In this document: in pieces, positions 166 to 14,983 of the stretch
Numbering within the stretch: position 1 is the first letter of the stretch
Layout: each line of letters starts with the position of its first letter
Source: a virus
Taxonomy: Duplodnaviria; Heunggongvirae; Uroviricota; Caudoviricetes
Virus record (IMG/VR): IMGVR_UViG_2529292981_000041
Reading direction: 5' to 3' (one strand)
Length of the DNA: 14,983 bases
Notes under the pieces: generated by a model
Database searches by the model: none
What the model saw: only the letters and a program-made list of their open reading frames with translations
Told to the model about the DNA's origin: nothing
Made by a program: the position numbers and the translations under genes

Positions 166-246
166 TTTAATTAAATAATTTTCACCGCAAAAAGTGCCAA
201 AAATCGCAAAATGACTACACCAGTGACTACACCGTTCGGTGCACTG

Positions 247-276
247 TATGAAACAACGTGGAACAAATAGACACAA
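247..276 (-). promoter_or_regulatory. Three tandem 10-bp TTGTT-type repeats (minus strand: ttgtgtctat ttgttccacg ttgtttcata)
   Basis: The 15-mer aacaacgtggaacaa at 252-266 is identical to 7716-7730 and differs by one base from the reverse complement of 13684-13698. Confidence 0.35.
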
Positions 277-6311: not shown

Positions 6312-6333
6312 GAAGGGGCTTTTTAGCCCCTTC
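6312..6333 (-). terminator. Perfect 9-bp GC-rich hairpin 10 nt after the capsid gene stop (possible partial terminator)
   Basis: gaaggggct-tttt-agccccttc. On the minus strand it is followed by tctgtttta, then the protease start. Confidence 0.45.
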
Positions 6334-6342
6334 GGTGTGCTG

Positions 6343-7500
6343 TTAATCGTCGTCCTGCGGCAGTTCCAGAATCTTTATAGCGTTCGAATCCACCACGCCA
6401 CCGCCTAAATATTTCTGCGTGAAAATTTTGATAAAGCCCGGCTCTGTCAGGTTGTCCGGTCTGGTGCGCACGCCCGTTTCATGATCAACGATGTAATAAC
6501 CGCGTTTGAAGTCACCCAGGGCGATAACGTTATCCGGCATAAATTCCAGATACTCCACCGGAAGCCCCAGCAACGTATCAGGATCACCCGCCTGTAAACG
6601 GTCGCGCCAGATGTAATCGCCGTTCGCGTTCTTCACCTTCTGAAGTTTTGCCGCCGTCGTGGAGTTAACCACCCAGACCGCGTTTTTGCGGTATTTTTTA
6701 CGTAATGCAAATTTCAGGTCGATCAGCGGGTCCGCAGATGTCCACGCCAGAGATTCGGAAGGTTTAATTACCTGCAACGTACCAAAATCACGCTCTTTGT
6801 CGTTCTTCTCTGCACGGGGTACGGATAAAAAACCTTTTGCTTTTTTGTCACCGTCGCCCACAACCAGATCGCTTTCTTCGGTTTCCGTGAAGGTGTCGCC
6901 AATCTCACCCGTCAGCCATGAAAGGATGTCCACATCGGAAAAATCCACGATTTCCTGTGTGGTGCGCGGGTACGCATAGACCGGATACAGCTTAATGCTC
7001 ACCTCGTTAATCTGCGGGGTGCTGGTCTGTTCGCGTGCCTTACCCTCTTCACCGTGGTTAACGGTCGCACCGCCAGCGGAAACAAGCTGCTTAAACTCGT
7101 TGCTGCTGATTTTCTTCACGGTACAGATGCGGCGCATGGTGGATTCATCCGCCAGCATTCGCATGATTTCGGTGTTCAGCTCGGGGATAACGGTATAACC
7201 ACCATCAGCGGGAACGCCTGTACTTAATGCGCGGGTTTCACCTGTCAGGATGTAGTTGCGTAGTTCTGCGGGGTCAGTGGTCTGACTGCTTTTACCTGGC
7301 TTGCTGCGCTCTTCGTCTGCAATGGCTTCAAGGCGGGAAATGTCTTTATCGAGGGATTCAGCTTTAGCGCGTAATTCGTCAAATTTTGCGCCCTCAGCAT
7401 CGTTAAGACTGCGGTTTTCTTTTTCCGCGTTCTCCAGCATGTCGCGCATCTGATTTTTAATGGCGGTTTTCTGCTGGCGTAATTCGATTATTCTCGGCAT
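6343..7500 (-). CDS. Major capsid protein, HK97 fold, with N-terminal delta (scaffold-like) domain
   Basis: 385 aa; charged, coiled-coil-like first ~110 residues (LRQQKTAIKNQMRDMLENAEKENRSLNDAEGAKFDELRAKAESLDKDISRLEAIADEE) followed by an HK97 MCP-like body. Confidence 0.9.
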   Translation of the reverse strand: MPRIIELRQQKTAIKNQMRDMLENAEKENRSLNDAEGAKFDELRAKAESLDKDISRLEAIADEERSKPGKSSQTTDPAELRNYILTGETRALSTGVPADGGYTVIPELNTEIMRMLADESTMRRICTVKKISSNEFKQLVSAGGATVNHGEEGKAREQTSTPQINEVSIKLYPVYAYPRTTQEIVDFSDVDILSWLTGEIGDTFTETEESDLVVGDGDKKAKGFLSVPRAEKNDKERDFGTLQVIKPSESLAWTSADPLIDLKFALRKKYRKNAVWVVNSTTAAKLQKVKNANGDYIWRDRLQAGDPDTLLGLPVEYLEFMPDNVIALGDFKRGYYIVDHETGVRTRPDNLTEPGFIKIFTQKYLGGGVVDSNAIKILELPQDDD

Positions 7501-7537
7501 AAAAAAAGTCCTGGGGTTAAGTAAGGAACTCCAGGAC
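7501..7537 (-). terminator. Intrinsic-terminator-like hairpin plus 7-U tract ending at the capsid ATG; the only SD-like AGGA lies in the 3' arm
   Basis: Minus strand: gtcctggagtt-ccttactt-aaccccaggac then ttttttt then ATG. Stem is 7 bp, one mismatch, 3 bp. Confidence 0.45.
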
Positions 7538-7590
7538 GCGGCAAAAACTCAACCGTTTTTCATAAGGAAATCAGCAATCGCACCGTTCGT

Positions 7591-7638
7591 TTTCCCGCCT
7601 GGTAATGAATATTGGCGAGAACATTAACAGGCGGGAAA
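7591..7638. repeat. Long inverted repeat (about 16-bp stem, 14-nt loop) in the capsid-operon leader
   Basis: tttcccgcctg g taatg ... cattaa caggcgggaaa: 11 perfect pairs, one mismatch, 5 more pairs. Confidence 0.5.
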
Positions 7639-7710
7639 GTGGCCCCAGCGTCCTGGCACCACGGGCGAGAATAATCATGATTCAGTTCGGGTAAAATATG
7701 CCGATCCGCT

Positions 7711-7740
7711 CAGTGAACAACGTGGAACAACCACGAACAA
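7711..7740 (-). promoter_or_regulatory. Three tandem 10-bp repeats (ttgttcgtgg ttgttccacg ttgttcactg) over a weak sigma70-like promoter for the capsid operon
   Basis: Minus strand: TTGTTC, 16 nt, TATTTT just downstream of the repeats. The weak -35 with helical-turn-phased repeats suggests activator dependence. Confidence 0.4.
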
Positions 7741-7759
7741 ATAATTTACAAAACATGAC

Positions 7760-7781
7760 AAAAAGCCGGATTGCTCCGGCT
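7760..7781 (-). terminator. Rho-independent terminator after the PerC-like gene
   Basis: Minus strand: agccgga-gcaa-tccggct followed by ttttt, 7 nt after the stop at 7788-7790. Confidence 0.5.
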
Positions 7782-7787
7782 GTGTGA

Positions 7788-8060
7788 TTATCTGTCCTGG
7801 TAATTTCGCCATATTTCATCACCAGCACCATCCATACCCATTTCGGCATAAGTGCGATCGACCGCCTTTTTCAGGTCTCCGTAATTATCCGGCGGCTCCG
7901 GTGGCCTCTGTGCCTTCCTGGAACATTCCAGCCGTCGCATCGTGATGTGATGCCGTTCCTTGTCTGTCTCCACCAGTTGCATGACTTCACCCCATCGCGC
8001 CGACGCTCTCCGGTAAAAGCCTTTCGCCTCCAGTTCTTCCGCTATGCGGTCATGTACCAT
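7788..8060 (-). CDS. Small regulator, PerC/Pch-like (putative transcriptional activator)
   Basis: ATG at 8058-8060 with a GGGGA SD; 90 aa, MVHDRIAEELEAKGFYRRASARWGEVMQ... The N-terminal AEELE-KG-x-RRA-x-RW pattern matches my recollection of PerC-family proteins. Unverified. Confidence 0.5.
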   Translation of the reverse strand: MVHDRIAEELEAKGFYRRASARWGEVMQLVETDKERHHITMRRLECSRKAQRPPEPPDNYGDLKKAVDRTYAEMGMDGAGDEIWRNYQDR

Positions 8061-8072
8061 CGTCCCCACCCC

Positions 8073-8483
8073 TCAGAACGGAATATCATCACCGTAAGGG
8101 TCATCGCCTTCCGCTGGTGGCTGATTACCCTGTGTGCCTGTGGTCTTGCGTCTGTTCCCGCCAGGACGTGCCGCACGGGCACTGATTACGCTGTCTGCAA
8201 TAACCTGATACCCCCGCCGCGTTTCCCCGTTCTGTCCGGTTCACTGGCTTACCTGCATCGTGCCGGATACGCTGGCAACATCGCCTTTTTGATGTTTAGC
8301 CAGGAAATCGGCCTGTTTGCCAAATGCGATAACCGATAACCATAACGTCGCCTGTCCGTCATGTGCCTGGCTGCATGGCAGCGATACCGCCATACGCGCC
8401 AGCGTCATCGGTGTTCCCTTGCTGGTCTGTTTTACCTGCGGGTCGTCCACCAGCCGCCCGTAAGCCGCTATCTGTGCTGTCAT
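8073..8483 (-). pseudogene. ssb: SSB-like gene interrupted by an in-frame TGA (8241-8243) at the position of the conserved Trp
   Basis: N-terminal ORF 8241-8483 (MTAQIAAYGRLVDDPQVKQ...TLWLSVIAFGK...) has OB-fold SSB character. The same frame continues for 55 codons after the TGA and ends with the SSB tail signature ...PPAEGDDPYGDDIPF*. The TGA aligns with E. coli SSB Trp88 (RTRKWTDQ against VSQ*TGQ). Confidence 0.6.
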
Positions 8484-8731
8484 GCTGTCTGCTCTCCGGT
8501 TTTAACGTTGATGGTTGTTACCTGTTCCGCTTCGGCAATCTCCCGTTCTGTCAACGTGGCAAAGTTTGCCGCTGCTGTGGTCATGAATGCGCTTATCAGG
8601 TCGGGATGTTCCTTCGCGTATCCTTCCCCTACATGTCGGTCTATCGTTCTGATTGCCACCTTTAAGGCCAGCTCTGTTATATCTAACGCTTTATATTTCG
8701 GCTCTGTTCTGTCTCTGCGTGTTCTGGTCAT
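8480..8731 (-). CDS. Hypothetical protein (83 aa), translationally coupled to ssb
   Basis: ATG at 8729-8731 preceded by AGGTGG; ATGA overlap with the ssb start; MTRTRRDRTEPKYKALDITELALKVAIRTIDRH... Confidence 0.55.
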   Translation of the reverse strand: MTRTRRDRTEPKYKALDITELALKVAIRTIDRHVGEGYAKEHPDLISAFMTTAAANFATLTEREIAEAEQVTTINVKTGEQTA

Positions 8732-13210: not shown

Positions 13211-13399
13211 TTAATGAACTGCCTTGCAGCTATCCTTCCAGGCCAGAACCTCGGATAAAGACCAGCCAACGGAACGACCGCCAAGTTTACGACGTGATGG
13301 GAATTGTCCGGCCTTTTCCAGGCGGTAGCGACACGTACGGCTAAGGCCGGTTAGTTTTTCGCATTCTTTTTCACGTATAAACCGATCAGTGCTTAACAC
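13211..13399 (-). CDS. alpA: AlpA-family regulator / excisionase-like protein (GTG start)
   Basis: 62 aa; CEKLTGLSRTCRYRLEKAGQFPSRRKLGGRSVGWSLSEVLAW matches the AlpA/Xis helix-turn-helix pattern (TGLSRSTIYR...FP..I.LG.RSV.W...EV..W). GTG at 13397-13399 preceded by a strong AGGGGGG SD. Confidence 0.8.
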   Translation of the reverse strand: MLSTDRFIREKECEKLTGLSRTCRYRLEKAGQFPSRRKLGGRSVGWSLSEVLAWKDSCKAVH

Positions 13400-13683
13400 T
13401 ATTGCCCCCCCTTTCGTTTCTTAAAGAGTCATCAGGTGTCTTATTGTGTCGTATTGTTCCCGCTAGAGTGATGAATGGCAAATATTGAGGATGTATGATT
13501 TACAGAAAATGAAACAGTAAGAATAAAATCTTTTAAATTCATGTTAATACAAAGGCATAAAATATTGTTTCATGCCTTTTTTCTCGCTCTTTAAAGAGTG
13601 ATTCGCTAGTGTATAAAAAACCAGTGACACATTAAAAATCAGCCACTTATAAATCTGTATGCTTTTTCGCCTCTTGTTCGTGG

Positions 13684-13723
13684 TTGTTCCACATTGTTGC
13701 TCATTGTTGCACGTTGTATCTGT
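13684..13723 (+). promoter_or_regulatory. Four tandem 10-bp TTGT-type repeats (ttgttccaca ttgttgctca ttgttgcacg ttgtatctgt) next to a 16-bp perfect palindrome
   Basis: Same repeat family as 247-276 and 7711-7740. Perfect palindrome cagtatgcgcatactg at 13733-13748; a plus-strand TTGCAC, 16 nt, TATACA promoter-like arrangement overlaps. Confidence 0.35.
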
Positions 13724-13765: not shown

Positions 13766-14983
13766 TTATTTTCTTCTGGCTACTGGTAGCGTGGTTACGT
13801 TTTCATGTGTTCCCGCCAGTATCCCTAACCGCTCCGTCCACATATCCAGCGCATTGCGTTTAGCATCCAGATAACGGGAATGATTATAAACTCGCTGCAT
13901 TCCTGGCATCTGGTGGCCTGTAAGCTGCTCCACGACATGCGGATCAACGCCTAAATCGTTCAGCATGGTTGTAAAGGTGCGCCGGATGTCATGCAGTGAC
14001 CAGTGAGGATGATTAAGCCTCCTGTGCGCTAATCTTCCATACTGCGATACGCTGGCCTCCTGTTTCACTTCCCCCAGCAATAAGCCCGTGTGCCTGTTCT
14101 GCTCCACCAGCTGCGTGACGAACGGCAGGATCGCTTCCGGTATGGGCCGGAATATTGCGACCTTCGTTTTGCTGTGCTCCTTCGGAACGGTCCATAGCAT
14201 TTCCGTAAAATCCCACTCCCCGATCTCCGATAACCTCAGTTCTACCGTTCTGGCTCCGAAGACAATCAGGAGGCGGATTAACGCGACGTAGTAAGGGGAG
14301 AATATTTTTTTGTCCAGTGCCTGCAATAATTCGCCAAGTTCTTTGTTACTTAAGACACGTTCGCTTATATCCGGTTTTTTCCCAACGTCCGCCACGTTCA
14401 GATCGTCCAGAACGTTGCTGATTGCATAGCGCCGCCTACGGCAGAACTTAAGCGCCTGTTTGCACGCCTGTAGCACGAATCCGGCAGTAACAGGCGTTCG
14501 CTTTGCCACCTGGTCAAAACAGGCCAGCCAGTGCCGTAGCTCGCATTTATCCAGCGGCATAGCACCAATCTGCTGTATTACGTGATTATTAAGTCGCCTT
14601 TTCAGGGCGATATAATCCACGCGGTTTTCCTTTACGTAATACTCAAGCCAGTAGGTGAGCGCATCGCCAACCGTTACCGGCTTTAACGCTTCCTGTACGG
14701 TGTAATTAAGCTCATGACGTGGATTTTTCCCCTCTGCCAGCCATGCGCGACACTGGGCGGCTTTTTCCCTGGCTGATTTCAGGCTCAGATCAGGATAACT
14801 TCCCAGCTTAATGCGTTCGGGTCGTGTCTCCCTTCCCGTTCCGGCCCTGTATGTGAAATACCAGGTCAATTTCCCTGATGTTAAATATTTCACGCTCAGG
14901 TTTCCGCCATCACTATAAAACGTGTTTTTCTCCGCTGGCTTACCATGAAGTTTCCTTAGCAAGGTATCGCTCAGTTTGTTCAT
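13766..14983 (-). CDS. int: Tyrosine integrase, P4-like, with N-terminal arm-binding domain
   Basis: 405-aa ORF, ATG at 14981-14983. Catalytic signature present: Arg in FGARTVELRL, HxxR in HDIRRTF, and Tyr region RVYNHSRY. The N-terminal ~90 aa are arm-binding-like. Confidence 0.95.
   Translation of the reverse strand: MNKLSDTLLRKLHGKPAEKNTFYSDGGNLSVKYLTSGKLTWYFTYRAGTGRETRPERIKLGSYPDLSLKSAREKAAQCRAWLAEGKNPRHELNYTVQEALKPVTVGDALTYWLEYYVKENRVDYIALKRRLNNHVIQQIGAMPLDKCELRHWLACFDQVAKRTPVTAGFVLQACKQALKFCRRRRYAISNVLDDLNVADVGKKPDISERVLSNKELGELLQALDKKIFSPYYVALIRLLIVFGARTVELRLSEIGEWDFTEMLWTVPKEHSKTKVAIFRPIPEAILPFVTQLVEQNRHTGLLLGEVKQEASVSQYGRLAHRRLNHPHWSLHDIRRTFTTMLNDLGVDPHVVEQLTGHQMPGMQRVYNHSRYLDAKRNALDMWTERLGILAGTHENVTTLPVARRK

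Follow-up and report, generated by a model that had tools for sequence, protein, structure and literature searches.

The Island and the Region Upstream of Its Capsid Gene

The window analysed here (the whole stretch of 14,983 nucleotides) is a capsid-forming PICI (cf-PICI) of E. coli O157:H7, which is 100% identical to the island residing in tqsA of E. coli O157:H7 strain SS TX 754-1, and which is a sister of EcCIEDL933 (CP-933C/OI-51), the prototype cf-PICI. All its genes are carried by the minus strand, in the following order: the integrase (13766-14983); the AlpA-type regulator of 62 amino acids (13211-13399); the DUF927 primase followed by ssb; the PerC-family gene (7788-8069, stop codon at 7790-7788); and the HK97-type capsid gene (ATG at 7500-7498), itself followed by the protease, portal, connectors, HNH and terminase genes. 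The perC-like gene belongs to the pchE family, from the name given to the PerC homologue of EcCIEDL933. The ssb gene (approximately 8241-8650; 8318-8728 in L001) contains an internal stop and is labelled a pseudogene in the RefSeq entry identical to the window; the island may be partly decayed.

We studied the 287 bases located upstream of the capsid gene (7501-7787). Every element listed there by a first-pass annotation, made from the sequence of the window, is indeed present on the minus strand, to which all features below belong unless otherwise indicated. The published cf-PICI descriptions that were searched present the packaging operon without a promoter or terminator analysis. Farther downstream, immediately past the capsid stop codon and ahead of the protease gene, we noticed a strong terminator-like hairpin (6312-6333, minus strand; 9-bp stem with six G-C pairs), which may set the ratio of the capsid protein to the protease and portal proteins.

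On its upstream side, the region begins with T1 (7759-7781; stem 7781-7764, T-run 7763-7759), an intrinsic terminator found by a terminator scan immediately after the perC-like gene. T1 folds at -12.6 kcal/mol (z -5.2), it closes the early operon, and related islands keep a terminator at or near the same position. An extra 354-bp cassette (1514-1880 in L002; 108-332 in L125), absent from the window, separates the perC-like gene from the leader in EDL933 and in many sister islands; it comprises its own copy of T1 and encodes a protein of 74-87 amino acids from the unknown family phrog_1957. A phrog_1957 homologue also lies directly upstream of the leader in the Klebsiella/Enterobacter-type islands, and the phrog_1957 protein is a candidate regulator of the leader. 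In some E. coli cf-PICIs, a ProQ/FinO-family RNA-binding protein is encoded two genes upstream of the capsid leader (L004 2197-2739; Pfam E 2e-23).

Phased Repeats and the Capsid Promoter

Next to T1, we observed three 10-bp repeats TTGTTCNNNN (7740-7711), with 0 mismatches in both adjacent pairs, and a degenerate fourth box TTGTAAATTA (7751-7742) adjoining them. The whole array (7711-7752) consists of a conserved TTTGTAAATTATT (7752-7740) followed by the three helically phased TTGTTCNNNN boxes. TTTGTAAATTATT is invariant in the 26 unique window-type variants, and each repeat column varies in at most three of them.

The array can be read as a weak promoter (7705-7740), in which we infer from the sequence a -35 hexamer TTGTTC (7740-7735), a 17-bp spacer and a -10 hexamer TTCACT (7717-7712), with a start at about 7705. 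The transcription start of the capsid gene EDL933_RS08700 has been located by Cappable-seq of EDL933 at 1687918, in seven of the eight growth conditions, which are those of uninduced cells (PMC10469882, Table S5). This position, 206 nt before the capsid ATG, maps by sequence to about 7705 in the window, the leaders of EDL933 and of the window being 97-98% identical. As the mapped start falls 7 nt past the TTCACT of the third repeat, the repeats do overlie a weak promoter (TTGTTC-17-TTCACT), as the first-pass annotation had proposed. That annotation regarded as incompatible with its reading either constitutive read-through without termination at 7501-7537 or a start downstream of the leader hairpins. 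Of these two outcomes, the start-site data bear on the second: the single start mapped in the EDL933 homologue lies upstream of all the hairpins, and no capsid-gene start downstream of the hairpins occurs among the EDL933 start sites listed (PMC10469882).

Two other promoter-like elements are worth mentioning. First, a predicted sigma-70-like promoter TTTACC-16-TATTCT (7668-7696; 8/12 positions matched) would start transcription at the first base of the P1 hairpin described below; in relatives, the scan calls an equivalent TTTACA-16-TATCTT/TATGTT that ends 5 nt before P1. A start site for this element was not seen in the Cappable-seq data of uninduced EDL933, and we dropped it as the main capsid promoter, which these data do not support, while retaining it as a possible second promoter. 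Second, a -10-like TATTTT occurs in the sequence at +8 to +13 from the mapped start (7698-7693), as a possible candidate for the sigma-dependent, promoter-proximal pause element of Q-type modules.

The window harbors two other TTGTTC-type arrays. One of them (13674-13709, plus strand) occupies the int-alpA intergenic region, where its four to six boxes are oriented opposite to those of the capsid array, with which it shares the 19-mer TTGTTCGTGGTTGTTCCAC. The other (251-276, minus strand) is located about 100 bp inside the attR end (the tqsA remnant). In total, the repeat pattern has 10 matches in the window versus 1.67 expected, a number that none of 200 shuffles reached. Across lineages, the spacing between the boxes and the downstream promoter/P1 is constant (77-79 bp) despite the differing box sequences.

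It is known that recombination directionality factors (RDFs) bind direct repeats spaced one helical turn apart, and that they can regulate promoters too (PMC7498355). It is also known that the AlpA protein of PICMI acts as an excisionase (PMC10803314), and that AlpA activates PICI genes in EcCICFT073 (PMC6092414). The window shows the same kind of arrangement, namely direct repeats about one helical turn apart, both near att and at a promoter (251-276, 7711-7751 and 13674-13709). A small DNA-binding protein probably uses the repeats as its binding array. Based on the repeat binding by RDFs and on the excisionase and activator roles of AlpA in other islands, the excisionase-like AlpA is the leading candidate, and by analogy a plausible one. 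Box type and AlpA allele showed no correlation across the islands, four divergent AlpA alleles being accompanied by TTGTTC boxes and near-identical AlpA proteins by different boxes. Extra arrays near alpA or att were detected in some islands only, and the repeats found by visual inspection upstream of alpA are only suggestive. The motif shared by the three arrays suggests a link between excision, the control of alpA and late expression.

Several observations were made in the vicinity of these arrays. Beside the attR-proximal array, two direct repeats GGTGTAGTCA, 12 bp apart (212-233, minus strand), look like integrase arm-type sites next to RDF sites. Upstream of alpA, the scan called a promoter TTGCCA-17-AACAAT (13453-13481, minus strand), the -10 of which overlaps a GAACAA box, an overlap that would permit autoregulation by the box-binding protein. 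In Klebsiella/Enterobacter islands (L028 and L033), other 10-bp phased repeats (ACGACACGTA four times, TGTTCAT five times) occur 300-420 nt upstream of alpA, which suggests that each island type has its own repeat code.

A Conserved Leader RNA with Two Adjacent Hairpins

The leader RNA begins with two hairpins. P1 (7639-7662; GUGGU-G-CCAG-GACG-CUGG-G-GCCAC), which the first-pass annotation had overlooked, exposes a conserved GACG loop and folds at -15.6 kcal/mol (z -3.4). It is directly followed by P2 (7591-7638), the inverted repeat for which that annotation reported a 16-bp stem, and which possesses 17-nt arms (7638-7622 and 7607-7591) that are 94% complementary. As RNA, P2 folds at -22.6 kcal/mol (z -6.8). 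Folding of the minus strand, a check put forward in the same annotation, showed that every hairpin of the region beats its shuffles (z -3.4 to -6.8), as does the whole leader (7705-7501, z -4.6).

Using the relatives of the capsid protein collected from 185,579 species genomes and IMG/VR, we found that the upstream region is conserved across Enterobacterales, in the cf-PICIs of Escherichia, Shigella, Klebsiella, Enterobacter, Citrobacter, Kluyvera and Kosakonia, as well as in those of Pantoea, Erwinia, Rahnella, Rosenbergiella and others. Their leaders follow a common plan: TTTGTAAATTATT and helically phased boxes; then a sigma-70-like promoter TTTACA-16-TATCTT; then P1, P2 and a 3' hairpin (P3), which in most lineages carries a weak Shine-Dalgarno sequence (SD) in its 3' arm. 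RNAalifold recovered P1, P2 and P3 unprompted, with compensatory changes in 10 of 26 pairs (P2 pairs included), and thus predicted P1 independently. P1 is an almost invariant 25-nt hairpin across genera; 98.4% of its cells are paired across lineages, and six of its nine pairs have changed on both sides. By contrast with this near-invariance, the sequence of P2 is free to vary so long as its pairing holds, as 28 distinct uninterrupted helices (mean 11 bp versus 6 bp in shuffles) were counted among 96 unique leaders. As MAFFT alignments of whole leaders misalign the window-type P1, we counted the pairs on gap-free mini-sequences made of P1 and the 3' block. On the sense strand, the P1 variants include G-U wobbles but no A-C combinations, which points to a selection operating on the RNA of the minus strand.

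A covariance model built from the relatives found exactly one match in each island, invariably ahead of the capsid gene, and no match in the Pasteurellaceae or Xenorhabdus loci. Its best match in the window (7662-7561; 14 bits, E ~0.01) aligns P1 and P2. Hence, the window possesses the P1 hairpin with its GRCG loop and the adjacent P2 upstream of an HK97-type capsid gene. It lacks the 3' module of the relatives (a C-rich linker and a GGUUUC...GAAACC hairpin), in place of which it has a longer 3' part ending in the T2 hairpin and U7 described below, which the model does not align. An Rfam search of the leader returned chance-level matches only, and no aptamer; no such leader was found in bona fide phages. 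We regard the P1-P2 leader as a candidate RNA motif of cf-PICIs, absent from Rfam and from the literature searched, and thereby as a candidate addition to the known RNA families.

An upstream ORF of 35 codons (7570-7678, minus strand; ATG at 7678) spans P1 and P2 in all window-type variants. Attenuation by a leader peptide was rejected: the ORF has no SD, L077 and L103 carry frameshifted or extended versions of it, and the peptide is not conserved.

A Terminator-Like Hairpin Abutting the Capsid Start Codon

The leader of the window ends with T2 (7501-7537), a terminator-like hairpin (7537-7508) followed by seven U residues (7507-7501) and by the capsid ATG (7500-7498). Its stem comprises seven base pairs (five of them G-C), a 1x1 mismatch and three more pairs (-14.1 kcal/mol, z -4.45). 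As the first-pass annotation had noted, the hairpin and its U7 end at the ATG and enclose the SD-like AGGA (7512-7509, in the 3' arm); more precisely, the U-tract begins at the base following the stem and is separated from the ATG by zero bases. Shuffling 7501-7787 2000 times with its dinucleotide composition preserved produced six cases of a perfect stem of 7 bp or more followed by at least six T in seven positions, none of them at the 3' end. Our simple terminator scan missed T2, which we take to be due to its perfect stem enclosing 16 nt. T2 nevertheless has the hallmarks of an intrinsic terminator, with a G+C-rich stem directly before the U-tract and, in the 97-98% identical EDL933 leader, a mapped start site 206 nt upstream on the same strand. 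As the ATG directly follows the hairpin and U7, every capsid mRNA must read through T2.

The window-type leader region is present in 360 of 5426 complete E. coli genomes, and also in Shigella and in the divergent L103. The T2 hairpin and its U7/U8 are kept in all 26 unique window-type variants, L103 included, and most of the changes preserve or improve the pairing; in L066 and L046 the stem is weakened by one pair or shifted. A U-tract at the T2 position occurs only in the E. coli/Shigella lineage of the window, where P3 is replaced by the longer segment ending in T2 and U7, whereas in most relatives this position is taken by a hairpin that sequesters the SD but has no U-tract. The 3' hairpin overlaps the ribosome site of the capsid gene in all lineages but one, the second E. 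coli lineage (L004 type), where the SD falls immediately beyond it. Since the U-tract is absent from the other lineages, termination appears to have been acquired later, on top of an ancestral ribosome-site hairpin.

A Candidate Alternative Pairing between the P1 Apex and the T2 5' Arm

The apex of P1 (CCAGGACGC, 7656-7648) is complementary over its nine nucleotides (100%) to the 5' arm of T2 (GCGUCCUGG, 7539-7531), a relationship that had escaped the first-pass annotation. The first seven bases of CCAGGACGC are identical to the 3' arm of T2 (CCAGGAC, 7514-7508). Thus, the P1 apex is a candidate antiterminator or anti-sequestor, and the T2 5' arm its alternative partner, a proposal which relies on the complementarity and on the covariation of the core helix. 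In this respect, CGCGTCCTGG of the T2 5' arm shows no variation among the 26 unique window-type sequences, in contrast to the variable 3' arm, as would be predicted for a 5' arm with a dual pairing duty.

The equivalent segments are AGACGUGAG and UUCACGUCU in other lineages, and GGCGGGAG and UUCCCGUC in the L015/L105 lineage. In the gap-free alignment of the known types of P1 and 3' block, a 6-bp core of the alternative helix is kept; of the flanking pairs, 15-33 occurs as UA, CG and GC, and 10-38 as AU and GC, being unpaired in 3/14 sequences. The alternative helix is paired at 81% versus 32-45% in slid controls, values that come from few independent lineages and from the same sequences as those from which the helix was derived.

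At equilibrium, the window favours the terminator fold over the alternative by about 10-11 kcal/mol, whereas the alternative (-51.4 kcal/mol) is preferred by the nascent RNA in which the T2 3' arm is still missing. Among relatives, the alternative is either the minimum-energy fold or within 1.4-6 kcal/mol of it: it is the minimum for the second E. coli lineage and for the leader up to the ATG in L103, the P1 of which is weakened, and it exceeds the minimum by 3-6 kcal/mol in the Klebsiella/Enterobacter type. The leader thus has the alternative helix expected of an attenuator, using the T2 5' arm. As for the sensor of an attenuator, we found neither a leader peptide nor an Rfam aptamer in the leader, nor an RNA-binding or antiterminator domain in the window, nor a ligand-pocket-like junction in the leader.

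Two other perfect complements join the 5' part of the transcript to the beginning of the capsid gene, namely its start codon region and codons 2-5 (7666-7676 with 7486-7496, 11 nt; 7697-7704 with 7494-7501, 8 nt). When the full mRNA is folded, the 11-nt complement, which is only partly conserved, closes the whole leader into one domain. These complements were rejected as a switch, as they are not conserved or compensated in L103 and EDL933, and relatives have similar duplex energies.

Relationship to Helper Phages

The first-pass annotation had considered that the head genes might respond to a helper phage, a proposal for which we found no support. A blastn search of the leader against 50,697 phage records returned no matches, and the K-type leader matched satellite-like records only. 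Mimicry of the late promoter of a helper phage was rejected in view of this absence of phage matches and of the different appearance of the PR'/tR' region of HK022. Similarly, a put-like RNA (homology to putL/putR) was rejected, as the leader covariance model gave nothing significant in the HK022 genome (best E 0.59, at an unrelated site). Furthermore, a related Klebsiella cf-PICI makes capsids in a non-lysogen, without a helper. The published EcCIEDL933 strains carried a helper or resident lambdoid prophages, and a helper may therefore contribute to the read-through of T2 in the lineage of the window.

With regard to island-encoded factors, we found no Q-family or other recognisable antiterminator domain in the island. 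The AlpA protein of P. aeruginosa is a proven antiterminator, which is 21Q-like and larger (residues numbered to at least 142). We rejected a transfer of its mechanism by name to the island AlpA, which has 62 amino acids and matches only an AlpA/Xis-type PDB entry.

Proposed Mechanism and Alternative Explanations

Together, these features fit a leader of the terminator/antiterminator or sequestor/anti-sequestor type, the mechanism of which is partly inferred. We propose, with a probability of about 50%, that the region is the control leader of the cf-PICI head/packaging operon, which would be off by default and opened by the antiterminator pairing. By default, P1, P2 and T2 would all form, and most transcripts would stop in the U-tract before the AUG. 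In the RNAs that read through, T2 would close the ribosome site, thereby generating a double lock. Licensing would occur when GCGUCCUGG (7539-7531) pairs with CCAGGACGC (7656-7648) instead of CCAGGAC (7514-7508), which would both eliminate the terminator and free the SD. The likeliest trigger would be a factor made or activated upon induction of the island. The binding of the boxes by AlpA, the leading candidate, would couple the capsid promoter to the alpA region and attR.

The first-pass annotation had suggested that the head genes are gated by antitermination, attenuation or RNA remodelling. This suggestion is strengthened by the upstream start, the forced passage through T2 and the co-varying competing pairing, which makes RNA remodelling a concrete possibility. 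It is weakened by the lineage-specific character of the U-tract, and by the fact that neither a sensor nor an antiterminator protein was found.

An extended version of our proposal, which we consider rather unlikely, is that the P1-P2 leader is a dedicated RNA switch of cf-PICIs. An island, host or helper factor would bind or remodel P1, the apex of which would then pair with the ribosome-site hairpin to license capsid synthesis, and the lineage of the window would have upgraded this device with a terminator fused to the start codon. The phrog_1957 protein and the ProQ/FinO protein, both encoded just upstream in sister islands, are candidates for such a P1-acting factor.

The alternative that we consider most seriously, while still finding it doubtful, is that the leader is a fixed attenuator and translational damper with no switch. 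T2 would simply be a leaky terminator that also occludes the SD and holds the basal level of capsid expression down; induction would result only from promoter activation and island copy number; and P1 and P2 would serve RNA stability or processing (as a 5' hairpin and a long stem of the RNase III type). This view is in agreement with the terminator fold being strongly favoured at equilibrium, the lack of a sensor among our findings, the constitutive start site in uninduced cells and the missing U-tract in relatives, but it leaves three observations unexplained, namely the complementarity of the P1 apex to the 5' arm together with its covariation, the near-isoenergetic alternative folds of relatives, and the stronger constraint on the 5' arm than on the 3' arm.

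We find it improbable that the region operates by processive antitermination of the lambda PR'-tR' type, with a factor that would load on RNA polymerase at the repeat promoter, or on the nascent P1-P2 RNA, to override T2 and later terminators. HK022 put RNA has a two-stem layout, which the adjacent P1 and P2 stem-loops (about 72 nt) resemble, and the general layout also matches, as a weak promoter with constitutive activity is followed by some 205 nt of leader and by an intrinsic terminator that immediately precedes the late genes. The boxes lie between the -35 and the -10, and the -10-like TATTTT is found at +8 to +13. Such a mechanism is at odds with the absence of antiterminator domains from the island, the 62-amino-acid AlpA that is not the 21Q-like protein of P. 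aeruginosa, the lack of similarity to phage genomes, HK022 PR' or put, and the helper-free capsids of the Klebsiella relative.

Even less probable is that the leader serves mainly as a small RNA in its own right, about 205 nt long, with its end at T2 and acting in trans (Hfq- or ProQ-type), its position next to the capsid gene being secondary. Although a constitutive start and a strong terminator predict an abundant and compact RNA, and a ProQ/FinO protein is encoded just upstream in some related islands, P1 and P2 persist in relatives without the terminator, so that no discrete small RNA is expected there; in addition, no target was identified and the 3' hairpin overlaps the capsid ribosome site in all lineages but the L004 type. 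Finally, that the palindromes act as DNA (operator, origin or packaging site), as the near-invariance of P1 across genera might suggest, is scarcely credible in view of the G-U but not A-C variants of the sense strand, the P2 sequence that varies while its pairing is kept, and the covariation of the P1 apex with a distant single-stranded segment.

The release of tail-less capsids allows cf-PICIs to spread from one species to another, and a bistable leader conserved ahead of the capsid gene would be a concrete and mutable control point. It is defined by a mapped start, a terminator-like hairpin that runs straight into the ATG and one specific alternative pairing of 9 bp, which make the question of control in our proposal directly testable with reporters and in vitro transcription.

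Comparison with Known Systems

The RDFs Apl of 186, Cox of P2 and Vis of P4 likewise bind direct repeats one turn apart at att and promoters (PMC7498355). The window resembles these systems by its 10-bp phased repeats, which occur close to attR, beside the gene of the presumed regulator and at the late promoter; it differs from them in that AlpA binding is hypothetical and that the box type does not track the AlpA allele.

With the lambda-type late control (PR', 6S RNA, tR' and Q), the window shares a constitutive promoter with regulator sites inside it and, ahead of the late/head genes, an intrinsic terminator preceded by some 200 nt of leader. Unlike the lambda-type system, the window has no Q gene and no sequence similarity to the PR' of HK022/lambda-type phages, its terminator touches the start codon and contains the SD, and its leader hairpins have a co-varying alternative pairing.

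Like the trp, pyrBI, bgl and T-box attenuators, the window has a terminator with a 5' arm that can pair either within the hairpin or, to the exclusion of this, with a segment upstream. The window differs from them in that no sensing device was found and that the same hairpin would also block translation.

The last comparison is with the immunity of satellite P4, in which the seqB segment of the CI RNA pairs with seqA/seqC to cause premature termination (summarised in PMC10111431). P4 immunity controls the early operon, whereas the pairing in the capsid leader, which has no Rfam match, would prevent termination rather than cause it; both cases involve a phage satellite in which short complementary segments of a leader control, or in the window would control, termination.
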